The notes: generated from the sequence alone by a model not told the origin. 64,000 nucleotides of DNA from Methanoregula sp. (GCA_039698055.1 JBDKTL010000030.1:32001-96000), one strand, 5' to 3'; positions 2,752 to 26,358 are shown, numbered from the stretch's first letter. Numbers and translations are program-made.

Positions 2752-2922
2752 GACATGAGATCGGTCTCATGTTCACTCATCCTCGCTGATGCTCCGGCTC
2801 GCTTCACATCACCTCGCTGTTTTCCGGAGTGTCCTGTTGGTAGGATGACGCCCCTGGCTTGTCGCGATGCTCCCACCAACAACTGCCCTCTGGCCCTCTC
2901 CACGTTTTGTTCGGACATTGAT
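2752..2922 (-). repeat. Dispersed structured repeat, fragment B (inverted homologue of ~9088-9273)
   Basis: Reverse complement contains GCGACAAGCCAGGGGCGTCATCCTACCAACAG and AACAGCGAGGTGATGTGAAGCGAGCCGGAGCATCAGCGAGGA, as in the 9.2-kb copy. Confidence 0.9.
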
Positions 2923-3136
2923 ATTATTCACAACGAAACCACATCTCTGACCGGACAATCGAAAGACGTTCTGTCAAATCTCTTCACTCTCACCGCGTCG
3001 ATCAATCCCGATCACATAATCATGCCGGATGCGGACCGGGGTGCCGAAAAATCAGAAAACGGGCACACAGAAATACAATCTGGAAATGCCATTCTCCCTC
3101 TCAATAAAAATTGAGGTAAAAGATAATTGATTTAAA

Positions 3137-3883
3137 TTGAATGAGATTCATTGTAACAATATGGCCAACGAGGGGACTATTGCTTATAAATTATGCGGGA
3201 ATATTTATCTAAATATTACAAATCGATGTAATACTGAATGCATATTTTGTAAAAAACGCAATTCACTCATCCCCGATGCATTTTGTCCTCAAACGGAAGA
3301 TGAAACGTGCGATTCACTTCCAAAAATTCCATCGAATTTTATGTCAATTGATGACGTGGTGTATGGATATAACATCAAAACAAATGATCCAATTTACGGA
3401 CGTGATCTACGACTTAAAGAAGAACCAAAATTAAAGACAGTTATCAACGAACTAGCTGAAATTGATTTTTCAAAATTTGATGAAGTAGTATTTACAGGAT
3501 TAGGTGAACCGATTATACGGTTTGATGATGTATTAGCAATTACAAAAGAATTGACTAACCATGGAGCTTCTGTGAGACTTGATACAATTGGATATGCGAA
3601 TCTTCTTTATCCAAAAAGAGATGTCGCAAAAGAACTTGCAGATAGTGGGATGAAAAAAATTTCCATCAGTTTGAATGCTCATGATGAAGTTACATTCAAT
3701 CGAATATGCCAACCAAAAATAAAAAATGGATACTCCTCAAGGTTTGAATTCGCGAAAGATGTGACCCGAGTTGGTATGGGCCTTAGATTTACAATAATTG
3801 ATCTACCATGTGTCGATATCAATAAATGCCGTCAATTATCTTGGAAATATCAAGCATCTTTCAAAGTGCGACCATTTTTCTAA
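3137..3883 (+). CDS. TatD-family-associated radical SAM protein, paralogue 1 (start may be ATG 3160-ish, MANEG)
   Basis: YLNITNRCNTECIFC (CxxxCxxC), VVFTGLGEP, ISISLNAHDE; AT-rich. Confidence 0.85.
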   Translation: MNEIHCNNMANEGTIAYKLCGNIYLNITNRCNTECIFCKKRNSLIPDAFCPQTEDETCDSLPKIPSNFMSIDDVVYGYNIKTNDPIYGRDLRLKEEPKLKTVINELAEIDFSKFDEVVFTGLGEPIIRFDDVLAITKELTNHGASVRLDTIGYANLLYPKRDVAKELADSGMKKISISLNAHDEVTFNRICQPKIKNGYSSRFEFAKDVTRVGMGLRFTIIDLPCVDINKCRQLSWKYQASFKVRPFF

Positions 3884-3991
3884 AAAAGAAGGTGTCAATT
3901 TTAAAATATGCTTCATTTCATTGCCGATTGGCGGTTTCCATTCAATTTTTCTACTTGAAGAAGAAGAAGAATATTAGCGACTGATACGCTT

Positions 3992-4786
3992 ATGACGAAA
4001 GCTGTAGTGTACGAATCAAATAATAATTTATATATAAACATTGCAAAAACCTGCACTTCAGATTGCATTTTTTGTACCAAAGAATATTTTAATCCACATT
4101 TTTTTGAGACAAAAAATGAAAATCTTAAAAAATCTCAAAATTTGCCAGAAAAAACAACCGAGCAAATAATTTCAGATCTTGAAGGGTTGGTCCTTACACA
4201 ATATAATAAAAATCTTTTTGTCGGAGATGGGGAAGAGCGGGTGAGATGTCTTGACGAAGTAAAATTTGGTATAGTTAGGCCCTCAAAGCAGATCTTATAC
4301 GGATATGATCTATATCTTGAAAAAGAACCAAGTTTTGAGAGAGTGAAAAATGATTTCAAAAAATATGTGAAAAATGATTACTATGAAGCTGTTTTTACCG
4401 GGATGGGTGAACCATTAACCCGTCTAGATTTAGTGATAAAAATTACAAAATGGTTAGATAAACAGAATTTCTTGGTTCGTCTTGATACCAATGGCCATGC
4501 AAAATATTTATTTCCGAAAAGAAATGTCGTTAAAGAACTTCTGGAAAGCGGAATGAAAACCATATCTATCAGTCTAAATGCCCATGATGAGATAACTTAC
4601 AATCAATTATGCAGACCTCATTTCAACCATGCATACTCACAAATGCTAGAATTTGCTCGAGAGGTGTCCCAAAGCGGAATGAATCTTCGATTTACCATTG
4701 TAGATATTCCTATAATAGATAAAGAAAAATGTCGACAAATAGCACTTGATTACAATGCTGATTTTGTAATACGAAAATTTACATAA
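3992..4786 (+). CDS. TatD-family-associated radical SAM protein, paralogue 2
   Basis: YINIAKTCTSDCIFC, AVFTGMGEP, RLDTNGH, ISISLNAHDE. Confidence 0.85.
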   Translation: MTKAVVYESNNNLYINIAKTCTSDCIFCTKEYFNPHFFETKNENLKKSQNLPEKTTEQIISDLEGLVLTQYNKNLFVGDGEERVRCLDEVKFGIVRPSKQILYGYDLYLEKEPSFERVKNDFKKYVKNDYYEAVFTGMGEPLTRLDLVIKITKWLDKQNFLVRLDTNGHAKYLFPKRNVVKELLESGMKTISISLNAHDEITYNQLCRPHFNHAYSQMLEFAREVSQSGMNLRFTIVDIPIIDKEKCRQIALDYNADFVIRKFT

Positions 4787-4788
4787 TC

Positions 4789-5442
4789 TTGGAATATAAA
4801 ATGAAACGTCAAAAAAATATTTTGTCTTATGAATTATGCGGGAACATTTATCTTAATATTACAAATCGGTGCACTGCTAAATGTGTTTTCTGTAGAAGAA
4901 ACAACCCTCCCGATTTAAAAAATCCGCCATATCTAACATCGAATAAACCAGTCTTTGGATTTAACTTGCAACTCTCTAATGAACCCAATGTGGAAGATAT
5001 TTTAATTGAACTTGAAAATTATAATTTATCTAAAAGTAATCAAATTGTTTTTGCCGGTTTAGGAGAACCTCTAATTAGACTAGATATGGTACTAAATCTC
5101 GCTCGCATTTTAACAAATCGCGGTATTTATACTCGACTAACTACTAATGGGCATGCAAAATATTTGTACCCCAAAAGAAATGTTGCCGATGATCTTGCAA
5201 AAAATGGAATCAAAATGATATCAATAAGCCTAAACGCTCATGATGAAACAACGTATAATCAATTATGCAAGCCTATTTTTAACCATGCATACTCACAAAT
5301 GCTAGAATTTGCACGAGAAGTATCTCGATGTGGAATGGATCTTCGATTTACAGTAGTAGATATTCCTCAAGTGAACAAAGAAAAATGTCGACAAATAGCA
5401 TACGATTATGATGCCGATTTTATGATTCGTCCTATCTCATGA
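4789..5442 (+). CDS. TatD-family-associated radical SAM protein, paralogue 3 (start may be ATG 4801)
   Basis: YLNITNRCTAKCVFC, IVFAGLGEP, RLTTNGH, ISISLNAHDE. Confidence 0.85.
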   Translation: MEYKMKRQKNILSYELCGNIYLNITNRCTAKCVFCRRNNPPDLKNPPYLTSNKPVFGFNLQLSNEPNVEDILIELENYNLSKSNQIVFAGLGEPLIRLDMVLNLARILTNRGIYTRLTTNGHAKYLYPKRNVADDLAKNGIKMISISLNAHDETTYNQLCKPIFNHAYSQMLEFAREVSRCGMDLRFTVVDIPQVNKEKCRQIAYDYDADFMIRPIS

Positions 5443-5532
5443 AATTCTTTTTCGTCACTCATTGAATTTTCCAAATGTATCTTTTTTAATTCTTTTCTTT
5501 GCTTATGTTTGAATTGTTGAGGGAGATGGGTT

Positions 5533-5769
5533 GGTCGGCGGAGCAAGTGCAAGCACGGCGGAGCCGTGCGACGCGGTCGGCGATCTGCATGGGACGAATT
5601 CCGGTTGAACCGCAGACGCTCAGTCATGTTCACTCGTCCTCGTTCTGCTCGCTGGCGCTCACTCGGGCCACTGCGGCCACGACCCACCACCCGCTTTGCT
5701 CCTCCCGCCCTTCTTAAGGGCGGGCAGTGAGGCGCGATAACTACGGGGGAGGTTTCCGGGCGGGAGGAT
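5533..5769 (-). repeat. Dispersed structured repeat, fragment D1 (inverted, internally deleted homologue of ~8872-8992 + ~9240-9357)
   Basis: Reverse complement reads ACTGCCCGCCCTT..GGGCGGGAGGAGC..AGCGGG.GGTGGGT.GTGGCC..CCCGAG.GAGCGCC, then CGAGGACGAGTGAACATGAC.GAGCGTCT. Confidence 0.85.
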
Positions 5770-5785
5770 ACAGAATCGGGGTATC

Positions 5786-6172
5786 TTACAATTGCGAAAC
5801 CACAATGAGTAGAATAATCGTTCCGATAAACGATACAAGACAAATTTTTGTCATGCGATTTGATTCTTCTGATTCAAGAATACTATACCTCATACACTTC
5901 ATAAACGAAATTGAGAAAAAGTTCCCAACATATCCTAACAGGACTCCAATAAACAGAGAGAGGGTGTCAATATCAGTGTATACTACGGCCAACAATATCG
6001 GTACGACCGCTGGGAGTCCTACAAGAATAAGTATAACTTTATCGAAAGTTGTGTTCTCCCTTCCCCTTTTTTGATAATCAAATAACTCAGAGACAAAGGT
6101 TCCCCCAATAATCCCAAATATCACGCCGTATGTAATTGGAATAAATAGCTCAGGATGGCTCAATAGACTCAC
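5786..6172 (-). CDS. Small AT-rich membrane protein (about 4 TM), hypothetical
   Basis: 128-aa ORF with four hydrophobic segments and AT-rich composition. Confidence 0.65.
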   Translation of the reverse strand: MSLLSHPELFIPITYGVIFGIIGGTFVSELFDYQKRGRENTTFDKVILILVGLPAVVPILLAVVYTDIDTLSLFIGVLLGYVGNFFSISFMKCMRYSILESEESNRMTKICLVSFIGTIILLIVVSQL

Positions 6173-6256
6173 GCTCGTACTATGTTGTTCGAGAAGTTGT
6201 CACTATTATTAATTTTCATACATCACGACAAAATTTTTTTTATTTTGAATTATGGG

Positions 6257-6447
6257 GGGTGGGAGGATGCGAGCCGGAACACGGCGACCATCGCCGTGTC
6301 GCGTGAGCATCGGGCGGGCCAGGTAAGATCAGGGCAGCCCAAGAGGACAGGCACACGGGCGTATGACCGGGGGCGGGAGAAGGCGAGCCGGTTACGGGGC
6401 CGCATAGCGGGCCCGTCGCGTGAGCCTTCGGGGGGGGCCCAACCGTT
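6257..6447 (-). repeat. Dispersed structured repeat, fragment D2 (inverted homologue of ~8696-8882)
   Basis: The + strand GGG(T/C)GGGAGGA-[hairpin]-TCGGG.GGG..CA and CGGTTACGGG...GTCGCG...CCA.CCGTT match the reverse complement of 8696-8882. Confidence 0.7.
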
Positions 6448-6668
6448 GCCAAGAAAGATAATGCCGGGCGTCGATAGTGTACCAACCCGGCAGGGCTCTT
6501 TGATTGGCGTCATGGTGTCCCTGTCGGGCCACCTTTTTATCTGAACCGAATCTGGATCCGTTTCTTCATCCGATGCAACCCCCACCACAGGCTTTTTGCA
6601 ATTCCAAAAATGGTTGAACGTTTTTTCCGGTACTCCCGGAGTTGCCGAGGGCTAAGCATAGGGGCCCC

Positions 6669-7034
6669 TCAGTACTCCGAGGGAACCATCAGAACACCGT
6701 CGATAAGATACATCTTCCAGGTCCCGACCGGGAAATCGGTGTACTCGTATTTCTGCTCGTAGATCACCGGCATGTCGCAGTCTTCGCGGCAGGTCAGGAT
6801 CGCGGTGTTCTCCTCGGTGACGGTCAGGGTCCAGAGCTGAAAAGGTATTCCCCTGACATTTTGGTGAATGTGAAAGACTGCGCCGATATCGGAGATCAGC
6901 CACTGCACCTCCGCACGTTCGGCCAGGTGCTCGATCCCGTCCGTGTGGATCAGGCCGGTGAACGGGTCGCGGATGTACCGGGTCGTCCCGGTAAAATGAG
7001 AAAGGGAGGATTTGAGATCCTCGGCTGCGATCAT
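6669..7034 (-). CDS. DUF6876-like hypothetical protein
   Basis: FTGT..Y, TDGI..LA, WLI, FQLW.L, Q...YTDFP, VLMVPSEY. ATGA overlap with the upstream gene. Confidence 0.75.
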   Translation of the reverse strand: MIAAEDLKSSLSHFTGTTRYIRDPFTGLIHTDGIEHLAERAEVQWLISDIGAVFHIHQNVRGIPFQLWTLTVTEENTAILTCREDCDMPVIYEQKYEYTDFPVGTWKMYLIDGVLMVPSEY

Positions 7035-7315
7035 GACGACCGCCCCCGGGCCTCTGCGGAAGCCCTGCACGGCAGCGGCTCGCAGATCCATGCGTGCATC
7101 TCAAGACGTTGCCGTTCTGCGATCAGATTTTCGAGGCCCTCCCGCTCCGCCCGGAGTTTCCACGAGTTAACAATCTCATCATGTCTCATGCGGAGATCCT
7201 GCGCATCGGCCTGCAGCATGAATGCCCGTCGCTCTATGTCGGGGATCGCGATCTGGATGCGTTCGAGTTCTTCGAGGACCTTGATTGGCATGGCGTCAAA
7301 AATGGTTTGGGTCAT
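7031..7315 (-). CDS. Hypothetical coiled-coil protein
   Basis: 94 aa, translationally coupled (ATGA overlaps) at both ends. Confidence 0.65.
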   Translation of the reverse strand: MTQTIFDAMPIKVLEELERIQIAIPDIERRAFMLQADAQDLRMRHDEIVNSWKLRAEREGLENLIAERQRLEMHAWICEPLPCRASAEARGRSS

Positions 7316-8223
7316 GCTGTCACCCCTTCCGCCGGTTCTGTCCCGGTCGAACCGACAGGGACCGGGGCAAAAGCCCCAATCATAAAGTCCGCTGCTTTCT
7401 CCGCTCTGCCCGCCGCGTACATCACGAGATCCGCATCGGCCTTGATCGCCGTTGCCCAGTTCTGGAGGTATGCGGCCTGATTCTGGATAACCGCCGATGA
7501 GTCGATGCCGGTGAGCGCGGCCAGGTATGCACCCCCTATCTCGGCGACCAGTTCCTCGCGCCCGTACGTGTCAGACCCGAAGCAAACCGGATCAGCTCTC
7601 TTGAACCGGTCGAGCCGTGGCCCGGTGGAGTGGATGCACTCGTGAAACATCGTCGCATAATAGTGCTCGGATGTTTTGAATCGGCAGATATCCGGGATGG
7701 TGATACAATCCATCTGCGGCAAGTAGGCGGCCCGGTCACCGGATGCAATTTTTATTGAGTGCCGGCCTGTATAGTCCTGAATGACCGCATCGCATCCGAG
7801 AAGGTGCGGGTTTTCTTTCAGGTCCGGCAGTTTGTACCCCTTTTCCTGATAGTCTGTTTGTGCGACGTTGAAGACAACGAAGGCTTTCAAAAACCGGATT
7901 TGTTTTTTGTTTTCTGTCTCCTCGCCGTTCTCATCGATTTTTGTATCGGTCTTTACGGTCCGGCCTGCATAGATAATCCCGTGGCCGTGCTCGCTCTTCT
8001 GGACCTGCAACCCTGCGGCGAGATACTGGCGATAGGTTGCCCAAAAAGGAAGAGGATAGGGACTGAGTCCGAGAATCAACCGGTTAATCCCGGTGTATGC
8101 CCTGCCGCTGAAAAGGTTGCGCGGGCCGTTCTCCGTCCACGGTTTCAGCCAGGGGATCTTTCCTTCCGTGAGCGCCTTTATGATCCGCTCGTTGATCTGT
8201 GCCTTCACATCAGCGGCTTTCAT
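7312..8223 (-). CDS. ardC: ArdC-like antirestriction / ssDNA-binding protein with zincin-like domain
   Basis: PWLKPW, P.N..SGR.YTGIN, WATYRQ, VFNVAQT, AAY.P..DCI..P, FHECIH (HExxH), YGREELVAEIG. Confidence 0.9.
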   Translation of the reverse strand: MKAADVKAQINERIIKALTEGKIPWLKPWTENGPRNLFSGRAYTGINRLILGLSPYPLPFWATYRQYLAAGLQVQKSEHGHGIIYAGRTVKTDTKIDENGEETENKKQIRFLKAFVVFNVAQTDYQEKGYKLPDLKENPHLLGCDAVIQDYTGRHSIKIASGDRAAYLPQMDCITIPDICRFKTSEHYYATMFHECIHSTGPRLDRFKRADPVCFGSDTYGREELVAEIGGAYLAALTGIDSSAVIQNQAAYLQNWATAIKADADLVMYAAGRAEKAADFMIGAFAPVPVGSTGTEPAEGVTA

Positions 8224-8573
8224 GCGGACACCCCGACGGGCTGCATGCTCGAAACGTTCGCATATTTCCGCTCGCCCTTGATCATTCCTTTGACCTGTGC
8301 GAGCGGGGAGACATACCGCACATTGTTGATCGAGATCATCACGGCTTTACCGGACCGGGTGATCCATGCCTTCCCGACCGGGGCCGCGTCCGCGTTTTTC
8401 ATAACGTCGGATATATCATAGATTGGCGCGGGCCAGTGGTCTTGGAGCTTGCGGATCTCGCCGGCAGGGATAACTGCCTGCATGGTCTTTACATCGATAC
8501 GGACCGAGCCGTTGTAGAGGCGCGCGGCCCCTATGTGCTCAAAGGTCACATCGGTTTTTGTTGTTGGCGTCAT
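8220..8573 (-). CDS. Hypothetical protein, first gene of the ardC operon; homologue of 41344-41712
   Basis: MTPTTK start after GGTGA; ATGA overlap with ardC; shares SG(K/R)AV.IS...VRY..P with 41344-41712. Confidence 0.7.
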   Translation of the reverse strand: MTPTTKTDVTFEHIGAARLYNGSVRIDVKTMQAVIPAGEIRKLQDHWPAPIYDISDVMKNADAAPVGKAWITRSGKAVMISINNVRYVSPLAQVKGMIKGERKYANVSSMQPVGVSA

Positions 8574-8695
8574 GGTGTTTTTCACCATACATACATCGAC
8601 GTGAGAGCATATAAGCCTCCGCCGTGCGCGGGGTGAAAGTAAAGGCGGTGCGTTTTCCGATTTGCGAAATAAGTCTTTTGCGTAGAATTTTTGTT

Positions 8696-9362
8696 TAACG
8701 GATGGCCCGCCCAGGCACACAGCGCGACAGGCCGCGTGATCGCGTCCCGTAACCGCGCCGTGTGACCATGACCCGCCCCTTCGGTTTCCTGTTGGTACGC
8801 GATCGCTTCGGTTGGACCCACCCGACAAAGCGAGCGACCGTCCGCTGATGTGTCCGGTAACCGTCGCTTTGTCCTCCCGCCCGGACCCGGTAATCCTGCC
8901 GAAGGCAGGGGTCATCCTGCCTGACTGCCCGCCCTTGGGCGGGAGGAGCGCAGCGGGCGGTGGGTAGTGGCCCAGCGGCCCGAGGGAGCGCCGCTTCAGG
9001 GTGCGAAGGTAACGAACCGCATCAGCGGTGAGTCCGAGCCCCTGATGCGTCGCGCGACCGAGTCACTGAGCGTTCCGCGTGCGCCCGATCAACAGCGACG
9101 AACACGATGCGGAGCATGGTGTGAGGAGCGGGCCGGGCAGCCGCTGGCGCCGGAGCCTGCGACAAGCCAGGGGCGTCATCCTACCAACAGAGCAACCTCA
9201 AAAAACAGCGAGGTGATGTGAAGCGAGCCGGAGCATCAGCGAGGACGAGTGAACATGACCGAGCGTCTTCATGTCCCGTAAACCAATAGGGGAGGATCGC
9301 CGCCCCACTCAGCACGTTTCGTGCACCTGCGGCGCACTCGCATGTGCTTCGCGGACCGGCTT
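8696..9362 (+). repeat. Reference (longest) copy A of a GC-rich non-coding hairpin-rich element
   Basis: Many short inverted repeats (CCTGCC-GAA-GGCAGG, CCCGCCC-TT-GGGCGGG, CGCATCAG...CTGATGCG, ACATGA...TCATGT). Sub-segments recur at 2752, 5533, 6257, 24466 and 26251. Confidence 0.85.
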
Positions 9363-9372
9363 GTGTTACAAT

Positions 9373-9717
9373 TCAGAGCAGCTTGGAATCTTTTCCTTTG
9401 CCGGTCGTTAACATCTTGACAACCATCACCCGGAACACCGCGTTGCTCTCATTTATCCAAGTATGTGCAATCATGGCGGGACTCTCAACAATGGAATCCT
9501 TACTGACACTTTGCCGTTCGTCACCGATTTCGACAATTCCGGTTCCTTCGAGTACATAGAAGAAAACATTAACGGGCGTGATATGTTTCTTGAGTGATTC
9601 ACCGGGTTTGAGGGTAATGACAACCGCAGCGGTATCCGGGGATTCGAAAATCTTGCGAACATCAACGTTGTGCGGATTCTTGATCGATGCTATTTTTGCA
9701 ACTTCAGTAATCTTCAT
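9373..9717 (-). CDS. Cupin domain protein
   Basis: LKPGESLKKHITP...FYVLEGTG...PAMIAHTWIN cupin motifs. Confidence 0.85.
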   Translation of the reverse strand: MKITEVAKIASIKNPHNVDVRKIFESPDTAAVVITLKPGESLKKHITPVNVFFYVLEGTGIVEIGDERQSVSKDSIVESPAMIAHTWINESNAVFRVMVVKMLTTGKGKDSKLL

Positions 9718-9719
9718 TC

Positions 9720-10409: not shown

Positions 10410-10420
10410 ACTCCTCACGA

Positions 10421-14146: not shown

Positions 14147-14168
14147 ATTTTTCTGGAGTTGCAATACC

Positions 14169-15668: not shown

Positions 15669-15693
15669 TAGCGGGACAGGGAAGTGAGCAATC

Positions 15694-15906
15694 ATGAAAT
15701 GTTACGTGTGTGCAAAGGAAGGAAAAGACAGTGATGCCGTTGCTGTCTGCGTCGCCTGCGGCATGGGGACCTGTATGAAACATACGATCCGGAAAGAGGT
15801 CGATGTCTGGGAAGGCGGATACCCGCTTCCCTCCCGGAAACTGCCAAAGAAGATGCCACGGATGCTCTGCCCGGACTGCAATGCAGCATACGGGGAGGGA
15901 AAGTGA
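15694..15906 (+). CDS. DUF2180-family zinc-finger protein
   Basis: MKCYVC...AVAVCVACGMG.C.KH...LCPDC. Confidence 0.85.
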   Translation: MKCYVCAKEGKDSDAVAVCVACGMGTCMKHTIRKEVDVWEGGYPLPSRKLPKKMPRMLCPDCNAAYGEGK

Positions 15907-16646
15907 TGGCATCACTTTCCAGCCGGAGCATTGCTGAAGGTGTAGGGACGGCACTCCTCGTGTACTTCGGTGCCGGGGCAGCAGCTATCACGCTGATGAT
16001 TGCGGCCGGGACAAAACCGGCAACACCATTCAACATCGGGATCGGCCAGCTCGGCGGGCTCGGTGACTGGTTTGCGATCGGTATCACCTTTGGTATTGTT
16101 ATCGCTGCCGTCATCTACTCGCTCGGCCGGGTCTCGGGGGCCCACATCAACCCGGCCGTGACCATTGCGCTCTGCGCAACGAAACGGTTCCCGGCCGGAG
16201 ATGCGGTTGCGTATATTGTTGCCCAGTGCATTGGTGCCGCGATCGGGAGCCTGTTCTTCTTCCTGACCGTGGGAATGGATGCAGTTACGATTGGCGGGCT
16301 CGGGGCAACGGCACCGTTTCCCGGGATCGGGTACAGCCAGGCGATCCTTGTCGAGGCAATAGCAACCTTCGTGCTGATGCTTGTCATCATGGGAGTCGCC
16401 GTGGACGAACGTGCCCCGCAGGGATTTGCCGGGCTCATCATCGGTCTGACCGTGGCCGGTATGATCACGATGGCCGGTAACCTCTCCGGCGCATCGCTCA
16501 ACCCGGCCCGCACGTTTGGGCCGTACGTGATGGACTTCCTGCTCGGTGGTTCGAACCTCTGGATATTCTTCCCGATCTATATTGTGGGGCCGATTATCGG
16601 GGCAGTCTGTGCTGCATTTTTCTATGACCGGATAACCGCGGAGTAA
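15903..16646 (+). CDS. aqpM: MIP-family channel (AqpM-like aquaporin)
   Basis: Two NPA motifs (SGAHINPAVT, GASLNPART) and six TM helices. Confidence 0.9.
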   Translation: MMASLSSRSIAEGVGTALLVYFGAGAAAITLMIAAGTKPATPFNIGIGQLGGLGDWFAIGITFGIVIAAVIYSLGRVSGAHINPAVTIALCATKRFPAGDAVAYIVAQCIGAAIGSLFFFLTVGMDAVTIGGLGATAPFPGIGYSQAILVEAIATFVLMLVIMGVAVDERAPQGFAGLIIGLTVAGMITMAGNLSGASLNPARTFGPYVMDFLLGGSNLWIFFPIYIVGPIIGAVCAAFFYDRITAE

Positions 16647-16780: not shown

Positions 16781-17800
16781 CTAATCGATCCCCTGCCGGT
16801 ATATCTTCTCCTTTTTTCCCCGCCGCTGTTTCACCCGTTCCACTCCGCTGGATATCAGCGCGGAGATGACGATGGGCAGGGCAATGGTTGCATCGACATG
16901 TACCTGTACCTGCAGGCTCGTTGCCGATTCCTTACCCCAGCTGATCGCTTCTTCAAAAGTACAGCCGGAAAGCCCGCCCCACTGGGGGGAATCCGTTGTG
17001 TACTGGATAGCATATGCATGCCCGCCAAGGTCCTTCTCGTGGATCGATCCAATCACCTGCGTCTGCTGAATGAAGTTCTTGGGCACCCCGCCACCCACAT
17101 AGATGACACCGGATTTCTTTGCTTCCTCTACCCGCGCCGTGATCTCGTCAGCATCGGCGATCTGGTCGATATCGATATCAAATCCCCGGCGTCGTGCAAT
17201 AAGAAGCCCGATACCGATCGACGAATCGGCCAGTGCCGGGATAAAGATCGGTACCTTCTCCTTCGCGCAGACCGAAGTGAGCGATTCATACTCCGGCCTT
17301 TTCCTCCCCAGCCATTCTCCCCATAACCGGGTGAACTCCCGCGAAGAACCCCGGAACGGCGCGATCGATTCAGACCATGCGGCTATCGCGCGGTCAACGG
17401 TCCGGAACTCCTCCTCGAACGCAAAGACATCGTAGATGCGGTCGATGCCTTTCCGGTAGAGCTCGCGGTCGTCAGCGGTATGGTGGCCACGGTAATGGCG
17501 GATGCCGAGATGCTCGCAGGAATCGTGAAATATGTTCGCACCCGTTGATACAATCACATCAACAAAATGCCGTTGTACCATCTCGACAAGACACCGCTGC
17601 ATACCTGCTGGTATCATCGCACCCGAGAGCCCGAAGAAGATCGTACACTCAGGATCGGCAAGCATACGGCGCCATACCTCCACCGATTCCCCCAGTTTGC
17701 GCCCCTGGAAGCCGGTCCGGGCCATACCGGACAGGAGGGATGCAACGTTATCTGATGGGCAGACGGGTGAGATTGTTTTCATCGGGTGTTTTTTTGTCAT
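16781..17800 (-). CDS. dys: Deoxyhypusine synthase (start uncertain; 17782 also possible)
   Basis: GFQGRKLG, STGAN, IDRIYD, PALADSSIG, GGGVPKNF, GGLSGCTFEEAISWGK. Confidence 0.92.
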   Translation of the reverse strand: MTKKHPMKTISPVCPSDNVASLLSGMARTGFQGRKLGESVEVWRRMLADPECTIFFGLSGAMIPAGMQRCLVEMVQRHFVDVIVSTGANIFHDSCEHLGIRHYRGHHTADDRELYRKGIDRIYDVFAFEEEFRTVDRAIAAWSESIAPFRGSSREFTRLWGEWLGRKRPEYESLTSVCAKEKVPIFIPALADSSIGIGLLIARRRGFDIDIDQIADADEITARVEEAKKSGVIYVGGGVPKNFIQQTQVIGSIHEKDLGGHAYAIQYTTDSPQWGGLSGCTFEEAISWGKESATSLQVQVHVDATIALPIVISALISSGVERVKQRRGKKEKIYRQGID

Positions 17801-17820
17801 TTCCCCAACGGCTTTTATAC

Positions 17821-18375
17821 TCATCCGCATCCCAGGAACCCGCGGATACTCCGGCTTGTGCGGCCGCCAAAATAGATATCCCGCTCACTCATGGTAGATA
17901 CCTCTTCGATAGTGAAATGGACCTTCGGGTGTTCCCTCTTGAGCATCTCCAACAACCGTTTCAGTTCAGTACGGGGTACAATACTGATCAGGACCGCAAC
18001 TGCCGGTACGAACTGGCCCGACCCGTTGATCCGCGTTGTCCCGAACCCCATCGTCCCCATACGGCTGATCAGCGGTTCAGGATCCTCAGTACAGAAAATC
18101 CGGATAACGGCCGTGCCGAGGCCGATCCACGATTCTATCGTCATCCCCAAAAGTGTACCAATCCCGTATCCTAGCATGTATGCAAGGATCCCGGGGATAT
18201 TGTCAAGATTCGTCAGTACGAGCCCGGTTGAGACGATCCAGACGCCGATCTTCAGCGTCCCGATACCCGAAGCGAGGTATTTGTGGCCTTTTGTTACATA
18301 GACAAGACGGATCGTCTCCATGGTGGTCTCGACAATCCGTGCAACAAGGATGATAAGCGGTAAGACAAGATCCAT
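17821..18375 (-). CDS. UPF0316 (DUF5698/DUF2179) membrane protein, paralogue 1
   Basis: ARIVETTMETIR, AYMLGYGIGT.LG, GFGTT.I.GSG, P.VHF.IEEV. Confidence 0.8.
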   Translation of the reverse strand: MDLVLPLIILVARIVETTMETIRLVYVTKGHKYLASGIGTLKIGVWIVSTGLVLTNLDNIPGILAYMLGYGIGTLLGMTIESWIGLGTAVIRIFCTEDPEPLISRMGTMGFGTTRINGSGQFVPAVAVLISIVPRTELKRLLEMLKREHPKVHFTIEEVSTMSERDIYFGGRTSRSIRGFLGCG

Positions 18376-18819
18376 TACGCATCCATAACCTGTGACCGCA
18401 GCTGACGTACGGTAATCTAGGCGTATCAGATTGCGGGTATGTATGCTTTGTGGGGTACTGAAAAAACATCCGTGCAATGGATCCCTGCGATAATGCAGAC
18501 GGTGTCAGCTATATTTCCAGATCATCGTGGAGCAGATCAAAAGCCGGTTTGTTGCGGAAAATATACCGGTACAGGATCCTCTTCAGTGCGAAGAACCAGT
18601 CTTTCCACACACGCGTACACATTCTGTTAAATGGCGAAGTTGCCGCCCCAGGCCAGAGCATTCATCAGAGGGTCTTCCCATGAGGGATTGACACCGGATG
18701 AAATGGTGAGATTACTGAAATCATACCGGGCCAATAGCCTGCAATTCCCGCACCCTGCTATCCTGATTGCTGTGTTCAGGATCTCGTAAAAAAAATGGTG
18801 CGGGATATCCGGATCCCGG

Positions 18820-19020
18820 CTATCGGCCGGAGCCACTTTGCAATCCTGATATTCCGGCATTATTCCACGATTTGCTCTCTTTTTCCTTCATCCAGCATTC
18901 ATAGTGGTAGATCCTGTTGTCTGTCCAGACCGTATCTTCGTAAATGTGCAGCAGTTGTCCGCACCGGTGACAGACCTTACGTATCCATGTTATAGGGATA
19001 ATTTTCTTCATCATCATCAC
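18820..19020 (-). CDS. Small protein with CxxC...HxxC (half-LIM-like) motif
   Basis: CHRCG..L...HYECW; follows 19033-19371 on the same strand. Confidence 0.45.
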   Translation of the reverse strand: MMMMKKIIPITWIRKVCHRCGQLLHIYEDTVWTDNRIYHYECWMKEKESKSWNNAGISGLQSGSGR

Positions 19021-19032
19021 CGATTTTCCGCT

Positions 19033-19371
19033 CTAATGCACCGGATAAAGATTTTTCAATCGTGTGTATTCATGGATTACACAATCCGGAGTAGTGCACC
19101 TCCAGAGTTTTCTCTCACCGGGTCCTGCAATCAGGACCATCGGCTTGCGACATTCACAGCAGAAGACCTTTCTCATGGATTCCTTCAGGGTATTTCCCTC
19201 GCGCTGGATTATATCGAAAAGACAGGCGATTCCCAGCCTGTCAGGCAAAGGAATGATTGCAGGACATCCGATACAATCGCATGCATCAGCACAATCCGGC
19301 CTGGCCTTGGCTGCGAGCGTTCTGATATCTTGAACTGCAAGGTAGATCTTCTCCATTTTTTTATCGCTCAT
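19033..19371 (-). CDS. Small Cys-rich hypothetical protein
   Basis: GGAGG RBS; CDCIGC, CCECRKPM...W.CTTPDC zinc-ribbon pattern. Confidence 0.55.
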   Translation of the reverse strand: MSDKKMEKIYLAVQDIRTLAAKARPDCADACDCIGCPAIIPLPDRLGIACLFDIIQREGNTLKESMRKVFCCECRKPMVLIAGPGERKLWRCTTPDCVIHEYTRLKNLYPVH

Positions 19372-19480
19372 CAAATCCTCCATCTGACGAAATTTCAGAT
19401 ACCATTTCCAATTCCTGTGTTTTTCATTCAACCGGGAACATCGGATCCGCCATCACCATAGCCGATGAAAACCATCATTA

Positions 19481-19576
19481 TTAGAACAACGATCCGGCCA
19501 TAATCATGACGAGAATCCAGATAATCAGGAGAGCCACAAGCCCCCAGAATACCTGATCCACCGTATAATATTCCAA
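19481..19576 (-). CDS. 31-aa single-TM microprotein (not in ORF track)
   Basis: AGGTGA RBS, TTG start, MEYYTVDQVFWGLVALLIIWILVMIMAGSLF*. Confidence 0.45.
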   Translation of the reverse strand: MEYYTVDQVFWGLVALLIIWILVMIMAGSLF

Positions 19577-19748
19577 GCCTGGTCACCTGCCATTATTACC
19601 CTGTTTTCATTCTCCGGTACGGGTTTCATTATATGTCCCGGAGGATACCCGGAACCGACCGCGTTGTCCAGTCCTTTCACCTGAATCCAGAAATTGATGA
19701 GACCGGTTTTTCCTGACCGGTCATCGTATTTTTTTTAATCAATGCGCA

Positions 19749-19976
19749 TCAGTACGTCCGTCGTGATGATCGTGTATTCTGGCGTTGCAATAATTGGATG
19801 AACTGTTGGTTCCGCGGACATTCATACGGATTCACACCCTGTTCCGGGTTCCATTTCCCTTCCATCGGGTTGAATCGTGCCGGGCACGATACTTCTTCAA
19901 CGATCGGCGAATGAATTCCCGGCACCATTCTAATTATTTTGTGTTCGCAATCTCTGCAAAACGAATGAATACTCAT
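19749..19976 (-). CDS. Small Cys-rich hypothetical protein
   Basis: MSIHSFCRDC...SCPARFNP...ECPRN. Confidence 0.55.
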   Translation of the reverse strand: MSIHSFCRDCEHKIIRMVPGIHSPIVEEVSCPARFNPMEGKWNPEQGVNPYECPRNQQFIQLLQRQNTRSSRRTY

Positions 19977-20351
19977 GGTTTTTGTTTCCTGTTTTGAATA
20001 AACATCAGATGTAACCTGACGTGCCGTCCGGGCGATGTTCTCTGAATGCAGAATAACGCCCTGTGCAAGCATTACCGGATGAAAAAAGATGATGGGGGAT
20101 TGAGGTGTTACTGCTGTATCAGTTGGGGCTTGATGAATTTGATGAATTGAAGGAATTATTCGATGTGTAATCATCTTCTGAATGCATCCGGCTTGAGCCA
20201 TTACACAAAGGAATACACCAATTCATCGCATCACTCCTGTACACATATTTGTCGTATGATAATAAGTAGTTTAAGGTGTTCCCTACGGGGATAATTGAAC
20301 TTCAGTTACCTTTACCAGTCTGATATTATTTGAGACCATACGGATTCCGGA

Positions 20352-20954
20352 TTATTTTTTCCTGCCCGTACCCGCCAGCGTATGAATCATCCCGGTGAAC
20401 GAATCGCGGCTCCGGTGCCGGAAGACTCCTTCGTTCACGTACCGGACATCCTCAATTGAGAAGAACGCCCGTGGATTGATCCTCTCAATACCCAGAGTAA
20501 TCCGGGAAAGCTCCGACCGGTTCACGAGTGAGAGGATCATGGTGACGGTTCCCCGCGATCCCCGGGCATCGAGACAGGTAACCCCGTGATTCTCTGACTG
20601 GAGGTATGCGGTGATCGCGTCACAGGATTCATCAGTTGTCACGATACGCAGGATCACCATGCCGAGGGACAACTTCTCCTCGACAACGAGCCCGACATAC
20701 GTTCCAGCTGCAAATCCCAGCGCGTATGCGAGGAAGTTTGCAATATTGGCAAGGTCTTTCATCACGACCTCGACTGCCAGAAGCCAGATCACGATCTCAA
20801 AGAACGCGATCGCGGCGGCAAGGACACGGATGCCCTTGGATATGAAGACGATTCGTACCGTCTCCAACGTAACATCACAGACACGGGCCAGAAAGATCAG
20901 CAGGGGAAGGATCACCCATGCATAGAGTTCGGGACTTATTAAGAGAAATGCCAT
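20352..20954 (-). CDS. UPF0316 (DUF5698/DUF2179) membrane protein, paralogue 2
   Basis: LARVCDVTLETVR, FFEIVIWL, AYALGFAAGTYVG, GVT...ARG, P.AF.SIEDVR. Confidence 0.88.
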   Translation of the reverse strand: MAFLLISPELYAWVILPLLIFLARVCDVTLETVRIVFISKGIRVLAAAIAFFEIVIWLLAVEVVMKDLANIANFLAYALGFAAGTYVGLVVEEKLSLGMVILRIVTTDESCDAITAYLQSENHGVTCLDARGSRGTVTMILSLVNRSELSRITLGIERINPRAFFSIEDVRYVNEGVFRHRSRDSFTGMIHTLAGTGRKK

Positions 20955-24292: not shown

Positions 24293-24465
24293 CATGTATC
24301 ATCTGGTTTTTACAATGAGGATCTCAAGAAGGAACGGAGGATTCTGGGGAGAACAAAAGAGGAGGCCAGAAAGAGATCCGACCGGATAAGGAATGGGGAT
24401 GATACGGAAACAGAGGGTGAAGAAAAAGGATTAAGAAAGCACCGGATTACGGCCCGACAATTTAA

Positions 24466-24686
24466 TCGAGTCGCCGCACGTCTGCATATGCCCGATCAAC
24501 AGCGACGAGCATTCCGCAGGAGCGGTATGCAAGGAGCGGGCCCTAGCAGCCGCTGGCGCCGGAGCAACGCGACAAGCCCGGGGCATCAATCCTACCAACA
24601 AACAGGGCAACTCCGGAAAACAGCGAGGTGATGTGAGCGGAACGGGTGATACGCCCGTTGAGACGAACATGACGGAAGCGTCTGCG
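24466..24686 (+). repeat. Dispersed structured repeat, fragment C (homologue of ~9060-9268)
   Basis: GCCCGATCAACAGCGACGA, GCAGCCGCTGGCGCCGGAGC, ATCCTACCAACA and AAAACAGCGAGGTGATGTGA are shared with copy A. Confidence 0.9.
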
Positions 24687-24757
24687 TGGTATCGTTAACA
24701 AAAAAAATTGTGGGAATTCAGATCACAATAATTATGAATTAGAAGGGAATTCTCCGG

Positions 24758-25522
24758 TCACTTCTTCAGGCTCTTCAAAACAAGGTTGGCCGCCTGCTCA
24801 CCGGACAACAGCATTCCCCCAAAGACCGCTCCCATCCGGCTCTCTCCCCCGACGGCATTGGCTGCCATACCGGCAACAAAAAGTCCGGGGAACACCTCCT
24901 TAGTATGCTGGAGAATATGGGATTCGGCTCGGTCAGCCCACATGAAACTCTCGCCTTTTACCTGAAGGTTCCCACCCTTCTTTTCCACAAGCCTCGCAAC
25001 AACCGAGTCATGACCGGTTGCATCGACTGTATAGCTGCAACGCATGACAAGAGGATCGACATGGAGTTTTCCCATCTCAACGGCAGTCCAGTTGATCACG
25101 AGCCCGCTGATCCGCCCGTCTGCCTTGATCATGACATCCTCCACGGACGTGAGATTGAAGAATTCAGCTCCCGCATCACAGGCAGCAGCGGTAAGTTTGG
25201 AGACAGCTTCGACTGACTTGGCGACATAATATCCCTCTTCGTAAACAGCGGAGCGGATGTGAAACCGGTCAAGCAGGCGGCGTGCCTCTTCCTGCACGAC
25301 AATCCGGGGAAACATCATCCCGCCACCCCACATTCCGCCGCCGACTGAGAGTTTCTTCTCGATAATGCCGACCTTGATGCCTTTTTCAGCGATCAGTGCA
25401 GCGCAGGTAAGTCCGGCCGGCCCGGCTCCCACGACAGCCACATCCAGTTCCATATAATCGATCAGGGTATTCATCTGGGTTGAGAGAATCGCCCTGCTGA
25501 TGGTAATTTCATTGAGTTCCAT
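24758..25522 (-). CDS. thi4: Sulfide-dependent adenosine diphosphate thiazole synthase
   Basis: VGAGPAGL, GGGMWGGGM, LHVDP (His, non-suicidal type), DATGHD, RMGAVFGGMLLSG. Confidence 0.93.
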   Translation of the reverse strand: MELNEITISRAILSTQMNTLIDYMELDVAVVGAGPAGLTCAALIAEKGIKVGIIEKKLSVGGGMWGGGMMFPRIVVQEEARRLLDRFHIRSAVYEEGYYVAKSVEAVSKLTAAACDAGAEFFNLTSVEDVMIKADGRISGLVINWTAVEMGKLHVDPLVMRCSYTVDATGHDSVVARLVEKKGGNLQVKGESFMWADRAESHILQHTKEVFPGLFVAGMAANAVGGESRMGAVFGGMLLSGEQAANLVLKSLKK

Positions 25523-25591
25523 GGTAATTGCCTTCACAGTATATTATTCAGAATACTATTACAACGTTAGGAATCGGGGTAAGGAAAAGAG

Positions 25592-26191
25592 TTATTTCTG
25601 TGATTGTGCATAGTCCCGTGCAATCCCGCATACATCTCGTGCAACACCCATCGGTTCATCCCCCACGATAATACAGACCGGCTCTTTTCCCATTCCTCCG
25701 GCATCGCAGATAATTTTCGGCACTCTCCCACCGGCGGCCCGAACCGATTCTGCCGCCTTCCACTGCATCGATAACCCCTCTGCAATCCTGAGTTCGGCAG
25801 GTTCAATCCTCCGGTCAATCATGACAGATGCCCAGCCTTGCTGTATGCAATAGTCTGACAGCCAGTCTGAAAATCCGGGAGGATTTGCAAAATCGATCCC
25901 GGCCCGGACGGTCGGATCGGTCTTCATGAGTTCGATGATGAACCGGGCCATATGGCCCGATGCACCGAACCGGACTCTCCCGGCAGCCCGTGGCATACCG
26001 TTGATGATGGTGATCCGGCCATCTACGGCCAGGACTTCATCGGGAGTTTTTGCATACGGGTGTGCAAATACCATATTGGTCCTGACTTCCGGTATGAGAG
26101 CGGTAAATTCCCTGCATGCTTCAACCTTCTCAAGGGCAATCGTCATCCGTCCGAACATGTCGATCTCTGTGGTGGGGTCAGGTTGTTTCAT
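25592..26191 (-). CDS. thiN: ThiN-type thiamine-phosphate synthase domain protein
   Basis: LIPEVRTN, AVDGRI, FGASGHMAR, D.GG.GKEP. Confidence 0.88.
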   Translation of the reverse strand: MKQPDPTTEIDMFGRMTIALEKVEACREFTALIPEVRTNMVFAHPYAKTPDEVLAVDGRITIINGMPRAAGRVRFGASGHMARFIIELMKTDPTVRAGIDFANPPGFSDWLSDYCIQQGWASVMIDRRIEPAELRIAEGLSMQWKAAESVRAAGGRVPKIICDAGGMGKEPVCIIVGDEPMGVARDVCGIARDYAQSQK

Positions 26192-26250
26192 GGTCCTCCT
26201 CTGTTCATCTGAATTATGTGATGGGAAGGATTATTGGTTCTCTGGTCATG

Positions 26251-26358
26251 TGACCGAGCGTCTTCATCTTCCCTGATCAGCTGAGGGTAGATCGCCGCCC
26301 CGCTCCGCACGCTTCGTGCACCTGCGGCGCACTCGCACGTGCTACCCGGGCCGGCTTG
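26251..26358 (+). repeat. Dispersed structured repeat, fragment E (homologue of ~9256-9362)
   Basis: TGACCGAGCGTCTTCAT, GATCGCCGCCCC and TTCGTGCACCTGCGGCGCACTCGCA are shared with copy A. Confidence 0.88.

Follow-up and report, generated by a model that had tools for sequence, protein, structure and literature searches.

What are the structured non-coding segments that recur along this Methanoregula contig, and what do they do beside genes that vary between species? The window analysed here, the whole 64,000-nt stretch of JBDKTL010000030.1:32001-96000 (GCA_039698055.1), had been described in an earlier note as carrying segments of one element, copy A (8696-9362), at five further positions. A BLASTN search with window positions 8650-9400 against the organism's own 49 contigs returned eight HSPs, the query itself among them. 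The others in the window lie at 2752-2901 (minus strand, 83% over 155 nt, E = 2e-36), 5614-5642 (minus, 97% over 29 nt), 5654-5741 (minus, 82% over 88 nt), 24490-24636 (plus, 81% over 149 nt, E = 3e-27) and 26251-26358 (plus, 82% over 108 nt, E = 2e-24), and contig C16 of the same genome holds two long copies (85% over 643 nt and 79% over 505 nt). The search matched four of the proposed recurrences (2752-2922, 5533-5769, 24466-24686 and 26251-26358), and an independent repeat search of the sequence recovered the same pairs. The fifth, 6257-6447, has no BLAST match to copy A and proved to be a diverged allele of its inner hairpin units. Together these repeats represent parts of a single DNA family, modular, non-coding and able to form hairpins, that is found in Methanoregula and its close relatives.

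Copy A had been taken for a free-standing element; it is instead an arm, paired with a second in inverted orientation, and the two enclose a three-gene operon of ArdC type. The complete form of the family consists of ~650-nt inverted arms around a p125/ArdC/DUF6876 operon, and the outer ~310 nt persists alone or truncated. In the window this unit occupies ~3.2 kb, with three minus-strand genes enclosed by the non-coding arms and copy A as the right arm; a second unit lies on C16 (83% identity over 2256 nt plus arms). An AT-rich spacer (8589..8703; columns 1-100 of alignment A2) separates the start of the operon from the right arm; it is kept among units, is present on the right-arm side only and is likely a promoter region. 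The inner part of the right arm (8704..8966, plus strand; alignment A2 of 12 arms) is made of ~70-nt hairpin sub-units between CCCRCCC tracts, then a C-rich/G-rich hairpin. The ~310-nt repeat unit follows (8967..9275, plus strand), identified by nhmmer profile matches and by pairing, G.A and loop counts, with its boundaries set by the flanks of solo copies. It extends from a GGCC-CAGC-GGCC hairpin to ..GACCGAGCGTCT and includes hairpins P2, P3 and P5, each with a clamp of G-C pairs plus tandem G.A pairs. A linker and terminal module (9276..9362, plus strand; sequence inspection and A2) complete the arm, and the element ends 10 nt short of a cupin gene's stop at 9373. A further copy of the terminal module lies at 26251-26358, and a compensated allele of it at about 5533-5600 (minus).

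The left arm begins with inner hairpin sub-units of the diverged allele (6255..6447, minus strand; 83% identical to the other C16 arm at 52998-53401, alignment A5). It is interrupted by an AT-rich insertion of 486 nt (5769..6254, from A5 and composition) that contains a small membrane ORF (5786-6172, minus) and has an 11-nt direct repeat, TCCTCCCRCCC, on both flanks. The remainder (5533..5768, minus strand; BLASTN, sequence comparison and A5) consists of the C-rich hairpin, a unit with a ~190-nt internal deletion and the terminal-module allele.

The first gene of the centre (8220..8588, minus strand) encodes p125, an ORFan of 122 aa with no match in Pfam, PHROG or NCBIfam. It has 264 relatives; among the 120 matches listed, all are at least 75% identical and those with a name are Methanoregula hypothetical proteins. 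Its AF2 model was unusable (pLDDT 42.6). The second gene (7312..8223, minus strand) encodes an ArdC-N ssDNA-binding domain and a zincin-like peptidase (PF08401, 96.7 bits, cut-off 22.6; PF18818, 94.3 bits, cut-off 27.5), with the HExxH motif present as HECIH in the translation. Residues 5-281 match the ArdC structures PDB 6i89/6sna (E = 8e-36), and judged by its sequence the protein belongs to the ArdC family, homologous over its full length to the solved ArdC. ArdC-N is described in an excerpt of PMC6222260 as a binder of the ssDNA transfer intermediate of conjugative elements. The last gene (6669..7091, minus strand) encodes a DUF6876 protein (PF21781, 112.8 bits).

The arm's outer ~310 nt (8967-9275) also occur solo or fragmented, and this genome carries two units and three fragments. 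A solo unit fragment at 2752..2903 (minus strand, profile positions 74-226; BLASTN and profile search) adjoins a K+ channel gene at 1746-2567, and in the genomes G016 and G017 units likewise adjoin this channel gene. This fragment and the terminus of the left arm bound a cargo of three tandem radical-SAM paralogues (2923..5532, plus strand; TIGR04038, 163-172 bits) of low GC (32-41% per kb). A TnpB-like fragment is seen at 911-1702, 1 kb off. On the other side of the operon, a solo unit at 24465..24687 (plus strand, profile positions 8-223; BLASTN and profile search) lies downstream of a histidine-kinase gene, an order also found in G047 and G060. A unit tail with terminal module (26236..26358, plus strand, about profile positions 205-226 for the tail; BLASTN and sequence comparison) lies directly upstream of a MarR gene, with 91.6% identity to the end of the arm that adjoins MarR in G047. 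Between solo unit and tail are thi4 and thiN (24758..26191, minus strand; Pfam Thi4 261.9 bits, ThiN 162.3 bits), and G047 has the same junction without thi4-thiN.

Pairing was assessed at 33 proposed pairs in 80 copies less than 96% identical. Standard pairs make up 90.8% of these positions, as compared to 24.0-47.9% when the partners are slid by 1-3 columns, and double changes occur in 22 of the 33 pairs (251 cells). None of 500 shuffles, in a control that is not tree-aware, matched the observed value on any of five measures. Compensatory pairing is far beyond chance. The stem variants are a few block alleles shuffled among copies, and linkage dominates the mutual information. Two of the stem comparisons on which the proposal of a folded family was based are present in the sequence (ACACGATGC-GGA-GCATGGTGT versus GCATTCCGC-AGGA-GCGGTATGC, and GTGCGCC-GCA-GGTGCAC versus GCACGGC-GGA-GCCGTGC). 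The third, ACATGA..TCATGT, is also there, but by covariation over the 80 copies the partner of ACATGACC is the upstream GGTGATGT and not TCATGT.

The unpaired and non-standard positions are kept as well. The tandem G.A positions of P2 are invariant in 78-80 of the 80 copies, those of P5 are swapped for C-G/C-G in 4-5 copies, and mismatches stay in place while their identity changes (G.G in 45 copies, T.T in 34). Of the 80 copies, 68 have a GNA loop on P2, closed as GC-GNA-GC, and the stem tips are GCGNAGC mini-hairpins. With their G.A pairs and GNA loops the hairpins are strand-asymmetric. The well-folding strand of each arm runs 5' to 3' outward from the centre and bears the G.A-clamped stems and the GCGNAGC tips. 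Set against 20 shuffled sequences, the whole 751-nt arm folds at z = -3.3. Taken by itself, the 246-nt module has no stability beyond that of shuffled sequence (plus strand z = 0.0, minus strand z = +1.2). The arm is non-coding, with any one frame open in at most 18 of 80 copies and lengths distributed 36/25/19 over the residues modulo 3. These pairing and loop counts uphold the description of a structured non-coding family whose stems are compensated, whose linkers hardly vary and which carries GNA triloops and tandem G.A pairs. The architecture of G.A-clamped stems, position-conserved mismatches and mini-hairpin tips is clearly selected.

These substitutions bear on whether the arms are transposon or mobile-element ends that an unknown protein (p125, DUF6876 or an enzyme in trans) binds as duplex, with the hairpins a by-product of palindromic sites and the solo units dead ends of old insertions. 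Such ends would agree with inverted arms that flank one gene set at differing loci across genomes, with a CAGCGA(G/C)G motif that occurs at least five times per unit and with p125 as an element-specific ORFan. However, the change from G.G to T.T at fixed positions, the swap of G.A for C-G and the compensation among copies of one genome fit folded strands rather than duplex. The unit genes have no known transposase domain, the arms of one unit are no closer to each other than arms of different units (79-85%), and no target duplication was seen by eye at unit ends or solo-copy flanks. We regard duplex-bound ends as decidedly unlikely. The unit shares asymmetric ends, sub-terminal hairpins and a sharp 3' boundary with IS200/IS605 ends, PATEs and TnpB omega-RNA scaffolds, but this genome has no TnpA, and the units are flanked by the ArdC operon instead of lying beside tnpB. 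Unlike MITEs, the unit has no terminal inverted repeats, its start (GGCCCAGCGGCC..) and its end (..GACCGAGCGTCT) not being inverted copies; by eye, no target duplication stands out in the flanks of solo copies.

A folded strand may be DNA or RNA. As a structured non-coding RNA, the arms would be transcribed outward, the left as the operon's 3' UTR and the right from a divergently oriented promoter within the AT-rich spacer, into a G.A-rich multi-hairpin fold that could, for example, bind an L7Ae-like protein; the solo units would be small-RNA genes or UTR elements. GNRA loops are a hallmark of RNA, and tandem G.A pairs are an RNA motif too. GNRA-type loops (GCGA, GTGA, GTAA) cap a variable hairpin and UUCG-type loops also occur, all on the A-sense strand; the left arm runs in the direction of the operon, and for 8 of ~16 tabulated solo copies a gene of the same orientation lies 17-376 nt upstream. 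RNA contigs from two independent wetland studies (metatranscriptomes X17 and X18) fall on the arm at 8781-9111, 8969-9056 and 9135-9267 (90-99% alike, depth 6.5-15), which makes transcription possible in relatives, although these contigs show neither strand nor ends and RNA libraries may contain DNA. Against this, the two metatranscriptomes of the source study have a depth of 0-0.06 over 8586-9247 while about 230 is reached at 17.4-20.9 kb, about half of the solo copies point away from neighbour genes, and a comparison of flanks by eye found no consistent promoter-like motif upstream of them.

The sequence of the stems points the same way. Among 2594 cells, G.T and T.G together number 74 and A.C and C.A together 76, so that there is no wobble excess, though counts this small without an excess are equally expected of decaying copies. 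With Rfam 15 at gathering thresholds, tRNA-Leu was the single pass in the whole window, and a search of 8600-9420 at E up to 10 yielded four matches that score 14-16 bits where the thresholds are 33-71 bits, in line with the expectation that no known Rfam family is involved. An excerpt of PMC13037366 reports that the GCGNAGC mini-hairpin melts at 76.5 C as DNA and at 39 C as its RNA analogue, and places such mini-hairpins at the G4 origin, ssiA and the N4 single-strand promoters. The lack of G.T excess, the GCGNAGC tips and the absence of RNA cover in the source study lead us to lean to folded ssDNA, which on balance narrows the earlier proposal of an ssDNA-folded (or RNA) element to its first part; an RNA function is possible but rather unlikely.

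The family is limited to Methanoregula and close kin. Repeats occur in 20 of 24 congeners, none were found in the other four, and further units are carried by G003, G008, G010, G011, G013, G017, G047 and G072. No match was found in Rfam, plasmid, phage or IMG/VR sequences, and a full-text literature search found no report on these repeats; this low-copy hairpin repeat family of Methanoregula is previously undescribed. Units are modestly better conserved than flanking genes (80-84% vs 65-77%), as for a solo unit of G047 (87% vs 70% for the adjoining gene). The better-kept solo unit, the modular mosaic build and the intergenic sites in both orientations would suit host-domesticated repeats of the REP/BIME or BOX kind, acting on mRNA stability, termination or nucleoid structure, and REP/BIME, BOX and MITEs are likewise intergenic mosaics of hairpin modules whose module content varies per copy. 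But REP/BIME number tens to hundreds per genome, and the seven single-contig genomes here have 2, 0, 2, 1, 1, 0 and 0 matches, with no RAYT/Y1 in this genome. Together with the four congeners in which no units were found and a distribution that is not genome-wide but clustered near ArdC units and in variable regions, this makes a domesticated intergenic repeat most improbable.

Solo units are located where neighbouring gene content varies between species, as the claim of copies at cargo boundaries had it. At the MarR locus, G047 carries an ArdC unit and this genome thi4-thiN; in G008, two direct units there bound 9 kb that include an R-M system. At the K+ channel locus, this genome has the radical-SAM cargo and the ArdC unit, and G017 a unit remnant; in G016, inverted units enclose CNNM and a P-type ATPase. 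The unit's 3' end is where paralogous segments of G008 stop, as does the comparison of G008 with G021. The neighbours of the ArdC unit vary by genome (MarR, K+ channel, ABC transporter, DUF2193-MIP, Schlafen-type ATPase). In direct arrays, unit fragments are interspersed with short recombinase-free cargo (three radical-SAM genes, Fic, ADP-ribosylglycohydrolase, DUF2193-MIP, thi4-thiN, R-M system).

Such arrays recall integrons, in which the unit would be a folded attC-like site and a recombinase encoded elsewhere would insert and excise promoter-less cassettes. Like attC, the units keep structure above sequence, conserve unpaired stem bases and have short recombinase-free cargo between sites, and ~18 nt of the unit's 3' end flank thi4-thiN on both sides. 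Yet those two 18-nt versions differ at several bases, cargo genes are oriented both ways, attC sites measure 55-140 nt against the 310 nt of the unit, and 0-2 copies per single-contig genome are few. Cargo junctions fall at many unit positions (profile 32, 74, 125, 137, 164, 174, 188, 205), with fragment starts spread over 24-189, and an attC-like precise site is therefore unsupported. No IntI-type integrase adjoins the arrays examined, and no Phage_integrase match was found among the ORFs of window positions 1-29 kb or the neighbour loci scanned. The sole tyrosine recombinase of the window (43720-44952) belongs to a separate tRNA-Leu island 17 kb off and is not the co-occurring enzyme that the earlier note had envisaged. 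Its other candidate, an HUH nuclease, is missing too, since Y1 transposase (PF01797) has no match in this genome (G000, 93% complete) and occurs in only 4 of 24 congeners, against repeats in 20. No relaxase, coupling protein, other transfer, primase or recombinase gene was found among the neighbours scanned. An integron-like system is very unlikely, and that the repeats organise or mobilise this island stays a conjecture.

Folded ssDNA signals such as attC, ssi, Frpo and REP are known from bacteria, their plasmids and phages, and we know of no archaeal counterpart. ssiA and ssiB lie on opposite strands, as do the copies here. In what an excerpt of PMC13037366 sets out, ssiA/ssiB of RSF1010, the G4 origin, Frpo and the N4 early promoters share with the family strand-specific folded DNA, short G-C stems and GCGNAGC-type GNA loops. 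Both ssi/Frpo-type signals and the arms adjoin an anti-restriction/ssDNA-binding gene of the leading-region kind. The bacterial signals are 40-300 nt, whereas the archaeal arms are ~650 nt with many G.A-clamped hairpins. The family, known from sequence alone, also differs in being chromosomal, in having no transfer or primase genes among its neighbours and in its gene-free solo copies.

We tentatively favor, as quite possible if short of probable, a reading in which the arms act as folded ssDNA, neither RNA nor duplex sites, with ArdC as partner and the solo units as relic homology anchors. A strand of the unit would become single-stranded on cell entry, in replication or in repair. Because the outward strand of each arm folds well, either single strand has one arm 3' of the genes. 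That arm could fold into a structure that resists nucleases and lets proteins bind or priming start; from it the centre would be copied back to duplex, and on the plus strand the folded arm may also drive expression of the operon. The ssDNA-binding domain of ArdC would be the obvious protein partner. Solo units would be relics of arms whose continued conservation suggests service as homology anchors; recombination between them could swap, invert or stack the intervening DNA, which would explain their positions at cargo boundaries. Weighing against this reading are the ordinary stability of the 246-nt module on its own, the block alleles among the stem variants, the GNRA-type loops and the RNA contigs on the arm, the lack of conjugation, primase or recombinase genes beside the units examined, the modest margin by which units exceed flanking genes in conservation, and the ~80-85% likeness of unit copies within one genome, which gives no sign of recent transposition.

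To our knowledge, single-stranded DNA transfer is not established for Methanoregula. It is an unlikely but consequential prospect that these are the first folded ssDNA cis-signals in an archaeon, a priming, protection or expression platform acting with an ArdC-type protein, which would imply that Methanoregula exchanges the module and its trapped cargo via an ssDNA stage (natural transformation or an unknown transfer route). The family is tied to an ArdC homologue in uncultured methanogens of peat, wetland and wastewater, and it marks sites where defence and accessory genes differ between species. On either reading it is a defined, testable object: the unit is 310 nt long, two proteins are candidates and the strand predictions are clear. 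If the RNA reading is true, the family would be a new class of large structured RNA; if the ssDNA reading is true, it would give a concrete handle on the uptake and establishment of foreign DNA in methanogens.

We found that copy A (8696-9362) has eight BLASTN HSPs in its own genome (2.26 Mb in 49 contigs; the window is C30:32001-96000) when the region 8650-9400 is used as the query. These are copy A itself, five stretches of the window (2752-2901, 5614-5642, 5654-5741, 24490-24636 and 26251-26358; E 5e-06 to 2e-36) and two long copies on contig C16. These window matches are stretches that the earlier note had related to copy A, or their cores. A BLASTN search with window positions 1-30000 aligned 7064-9275 with C16 52980-50741 (83% over 2256 nt) and 6255-6662 with C16 53401-52998 (83%); copy A therefore does not stand alone but forms the right arm of a ~3.2-kb unit found twice in the genome. 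The earlier note had overlooked this arrangement of an ArdC operon between inverted arms while reading the structure, the novelty and the cargo boundaries correctly.

The centre of the unit holds three minus-strand genes: the 122-aa ORFan p125 (8220-8588) comes first, followed by an ArdC homologue (7312-8223) and a DUF6876 protein (6669-7091). The ArdC homologue contains ArdC-N (96.7 bits) and zincin-like peptidase (94.3 bits) domains with a HECIH motif, and its residues 5-281 match PDB 6i89/6sna (E 8e-36). There is no match to p125 in Pfam, PHROG or NCBIfam and no usable one in the ESM Atlas, and its AF2 structure, at a pLDDT of 42.6, was unusable for fold comparison. The right arm (8704-9362, plus strand) and the left arm (from about 6447 leftwards, minus strand) are inverted copies, with position 1 of each facing the centre. 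The arm alignment showed that an AT-rich spacer (8589-8703) is kept among units on the 5' side of the operon only.

The left arm of the window is damaged: its outer unit has an internal loss of about 190 nt, and a 486-nt AT-rich insertion (5769-6254) encoding a small membrane ORF of 128 aa lies inside it. This insertion has the 11-nt repeat TCCTCCCRCCC on both sides, and the C16 arm has one copy of it; the pair resembles a target duplication from some other small insert. Beyond the terminal module of the left arm, at about 5533, are three low-GC radical-SAM paralogues (3137-5442; TIGR04038, 163-172 bits), and beyond these a solo unit fragment (2752-2903), lacking the operon, adjoins a K+ channel gene. 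The three paralogues belong to the TatD-associated family and stand in tandem in a block of 32-41% GC with internal repeats 64-80% identical; no TatD-like gene adjoins the block.

The flanks of solo copies place the true repeat unit at ~310 nt (8967-9275 in the window), with unrelated sequence on both sides and, when the ends were compared, no terminal inverted repeat. Its first element is a GGCC-CAGC-GGCC hairpin, and its last nucleotides are GACCGAGCGTCT. By arm alignment, each arm is a mosaic that runs from ~70-nt inner hairpin sub-units within CCCRCCC tracts through the unit to alternative terminal modules. An nhmmer profile built from copy A positions 400-626 and run on the window and other loci gave 171 matches, of which 103 are near full length and 85 of these unique. 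For the structure set we kept 80 copies less than 96% identical, leaving out five near-duplicates of the 85. A protein-coding reading was rejected: any one frame is open in 18 of the 80 copies at most, and copy lengths are not multiples of three.

We set 33 pairs in five helices by hand from the same 80 sequences that were then scored. Standard pairs occupy 90.8% of the 2594 cells, as compared to 24.0-47.9% after a shift of the 3' partners by 1-3 columns, and double changes occur at 22 of the 33 pairs (251 cells), bearing out the proposal of a structured repeat with compensatory stems. None of 500 column shuffles, which ignore relatedness, matched the observed value on any of five measures. 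The paired share is 97.5% in hairpin P2, 92.4% in P3 and 90.8% in P5, and 77% and 70% in the two small helices. Stem variants are a few block alleles reassorted among copies, so mutual information is dominated by linkage, and a mutual-information scan could not separate true pairs from neighbouring columns. The P2 stem has at least five different alleles, every one of which pairs. The proposed ACATGA..TCATGT hairpin exists in copy A; across copies, the partner of ACATGACC is instead the upstream GGTGATGT, with GAGTCTGT/ACAGTCTC as the alternative allele. RNAalifold on MAFFT alignments recovered the helices in part only. Thermodynamics adds little to the case for structure: the folding energy of a 246-nt module gave no signal versus shuffles (z = 0.0 on the plus strand, +1.2 on the minus strand), and that of a 751-nt arm gave z = -3.3 on 20 shuffles only.

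The non-canonical features are the best-conserved part of the unit. Four tandem G.A positions in P2 are G.A or A.G in 78-80 of the 80 copies; the tandem G.A positions of P5 are so in 69-70, with C-G/C-G in their place in 4-5. A like-with-like mismatch is constant at one stem position (G.G in 45 copies, T.T in 34; n = 80). P2 has a GNA loop in 68 of 80 copies (GAA 46, GGA 15, GCA 6, GTA 1).

These helices could act in RNA or in single-stranded DNA, and we lean towards folded ssDNA for the arms. GNRA-type loops capping a variable hairpin and UUCG-type loops in the inner arm, both on the A-sense strand (the plus strand of the window at copy A), would suit a structured RNA, as would RNA contigs of two wetland studies that lie on the arm at depth 6.5-15. 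Set against these, G.T and T.G (74 of 2594 cells) are no commoner than A.C and C.A (76), and thus wobble pairs are not favoured. The tip of P2 is a GCGNAGC mini-hairpin, which is reported in a review (PMC13037366) to melt at 76.5 C as DNA versus 39 C for r(GCGAAAGC); the same review reports the motif at the G4 origin, ssiA and the N4 single-strand promoters. The two metatranscriptomes of the source study cover 8586-9247 at depth 0-0.06 as compared to about 230 at 17.4-20.9 kb, which as contig evidence cannot prove absence. RNA cover was judged throughout from contigs of the metatranscriptome sets X15-X18, in which contig-free parts alone prove nothing. No promoter-like motif is common to the solo units. 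An ArdC homologue lies beside the arms, and ArdC-N is described (PMC6222260) as a domain that binds the ssDNA intermediate formed in the transfer of conjugative elements. We tentatively rank folded ssDNA ahead of RNA. The stretch with by far the best RNA cover in the window, 17444-20915 (contig depth about 220-235 in the two metatranscriptomes of the source study), contains two DUF5698/DUF2179 membrane-protein genes and ORFs without a Pfam match.

Judging by the names of public contigs that match it, the repeat family occurs in Methanoregula and other Methanoregulaceae. Of 41 genomes searched, 24 have DNA matches: its own, 20 of 24 congeners and, weakly (E 1.8e-7 to 6.8e-4), 3 of 16 from other genera in the order. 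A scan of 185,579 species genomes found the unit motif in at least 127 stretches, and 10 of 80 among the matches listed carry bacterial bin names. In three of these loci, L043, L047 and L061, nhmmer confirmed the unit; the last two are contigs of only 1.0 and 1.7 kb, and we therefore took the three to be mis-binned. The other seven are presumed to be chance matches. The family is low-copy: seven single-contig genomes gave 2, 0, 2, 1, 1, 0 and 0 matches, and counts above these, up to 17, stem from fragmented bins. ArdC is present in 8 of 24 congeners; the units therefore outlive the operon. There are 264 relatives of p125. Among the 120 matches listed, all are at least 75% identical, the named ones are all hypothetical except P0058, which has a dehydrogenase E1-component name, and the two named by NCBI are from Methanoregula. 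Distant BLASTN of 6255-9400 gave no match in plasmid or phage collections; in IMG/VR the unit motif occurs in one stretch, with the rarer 20-nt spacing, and the p125 alignment has no confirmed relative. With no Rfam match, which eliminates a known RNA family, and no description found in the full-text literature, the repeat family is undescribed as far as our searches reach, as had been proposed.

We found no partner nuclease or recombinase for the units. The suggested HUH nuclease is not borne out: Y1 HUH transposases have no match in the genome (93% complete) and occur in only 4 of 24 congeners. TnpA is likewise absent from the genome, and a TnpB-like fragment (911-1702) lies next to no unit. 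This TnpB/Cas12f-like fragment is 263 aa long and has the C-terminal TNB domain only; a relative with 67% identity lies on contig C48. The suggestion of a tyrosine recombinase is not borne out either: the only one in the window (43720-44952, minus strand) adjoins tRNA-Leu(CAA) (45015-45097, minus strand) on the border of a distinct low-GC defence island. That island (29000-45100), which ends at this integrase, contains genes for DUF4238, an AAA_15/AAA_21 ATPase, a Dam-like methylase, a DUF4062+HATPase_c_4 protein, a Swt1-like HEPN protein and a 1033-aa ORF without a Pfam match. It has the look of a defence island that integrated at a tRNA gene and has no connection with the repeats.

The claim that the repeats mark cargo boundaries held up at two loci, where gene content beside the units differs between genomes. 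At the MarR locus, the order in its own genome is histidine kinase, unit (24465-24687), thi4-thiN, unit tail with terminal module (26236-26358) and MarR. In genome G047 a terminal module and full unit, forming the arm of a p125-carrying unit, lie directly at MarR (91.6% identical on the MarR side), and in G008 a 9-kb segment that encodes a methylase and a TdeIII-type restriction enzyme lies between two direct units ahead of MarR. At the K+ channel locus, the radical-SAM cargo and ArdC unit correspond to a unit remnant in G017 and to a CNNM transporter and P-type ATPase between inverted units in G016. Of the 9 arm-bearing loci inspected, 5 have at least one extra unit fragment farther out in direct orientation, and the cargo between arm and fragment includes Fic, ADP-ribosylglycohydrolase and DUF2193-aquaporin. 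The DUF2193 and aquaporin gene pair of the window (14082-16646) has three copies in the genome (C30, C16 and C25; 77-79% identical), and in G011 the pair has a unit fragment on one side and the arm of an ArdC unit on the other.

The 3' end of the unit is a repeated stopping point of homology between paralogous or orthologous segments. A precise recombination site is argued against by fragments that start at many unit positions, by cargo genes in both directions and by the about 18 nt flanking thi4-thiN on both sides, which differ at several bases. In an empty-site comparison, the flanks of a solo unit in G009 were not syntenic in other genomes. In the region 591-6531 of L030 (G000:C16:44000-60000), the second ArdC unit adjoins an ORC-CDC6-like 625-aa protein and a Schlafen AlbA_2 and HATPase_c_4 protein, with a DUF7287/7288/7266/7289 cluster on its other side; its surroundings may be another variable or defence region. 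In G008 a unit tail at the end of contig C24 is followed immediately by a 435-aa ORF (L028, 25-1332), of which residues 101-144 alone give a short family-B DNA polymerase match (48.6 bits).

The well-folding strand of both arms is the one running 5' to 3' away from the centre. Whichever strand of the ArdC unit became single-stranded, one arm would lie 3' of the genes on it and could form a stable structure, bound by protein or open to priming, and the centre would be copied back to duplex from there. The plus strand is the operon template and has the right arm upstream of the genes, in the manner of single-strand promoters. Such promoters lie upstream of genes in plasmid leading regions. ArdC would be the likely binding partner of the folded arm. 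Solo units would be arm relics and, because they are conserved, may serve as anchors of homology through which the intervening DNA is exchanged, inverted or stacked. The kinase-unit and unit-MarR order in G047 as compared to its own genome suggests one such inversion-like rearrangement between inverted units.

The repeat family is real and is best filed among the structured repeats and cis-signals of mobile DNA, where its archaeal setting and G.A-clamped architecture are unusual.
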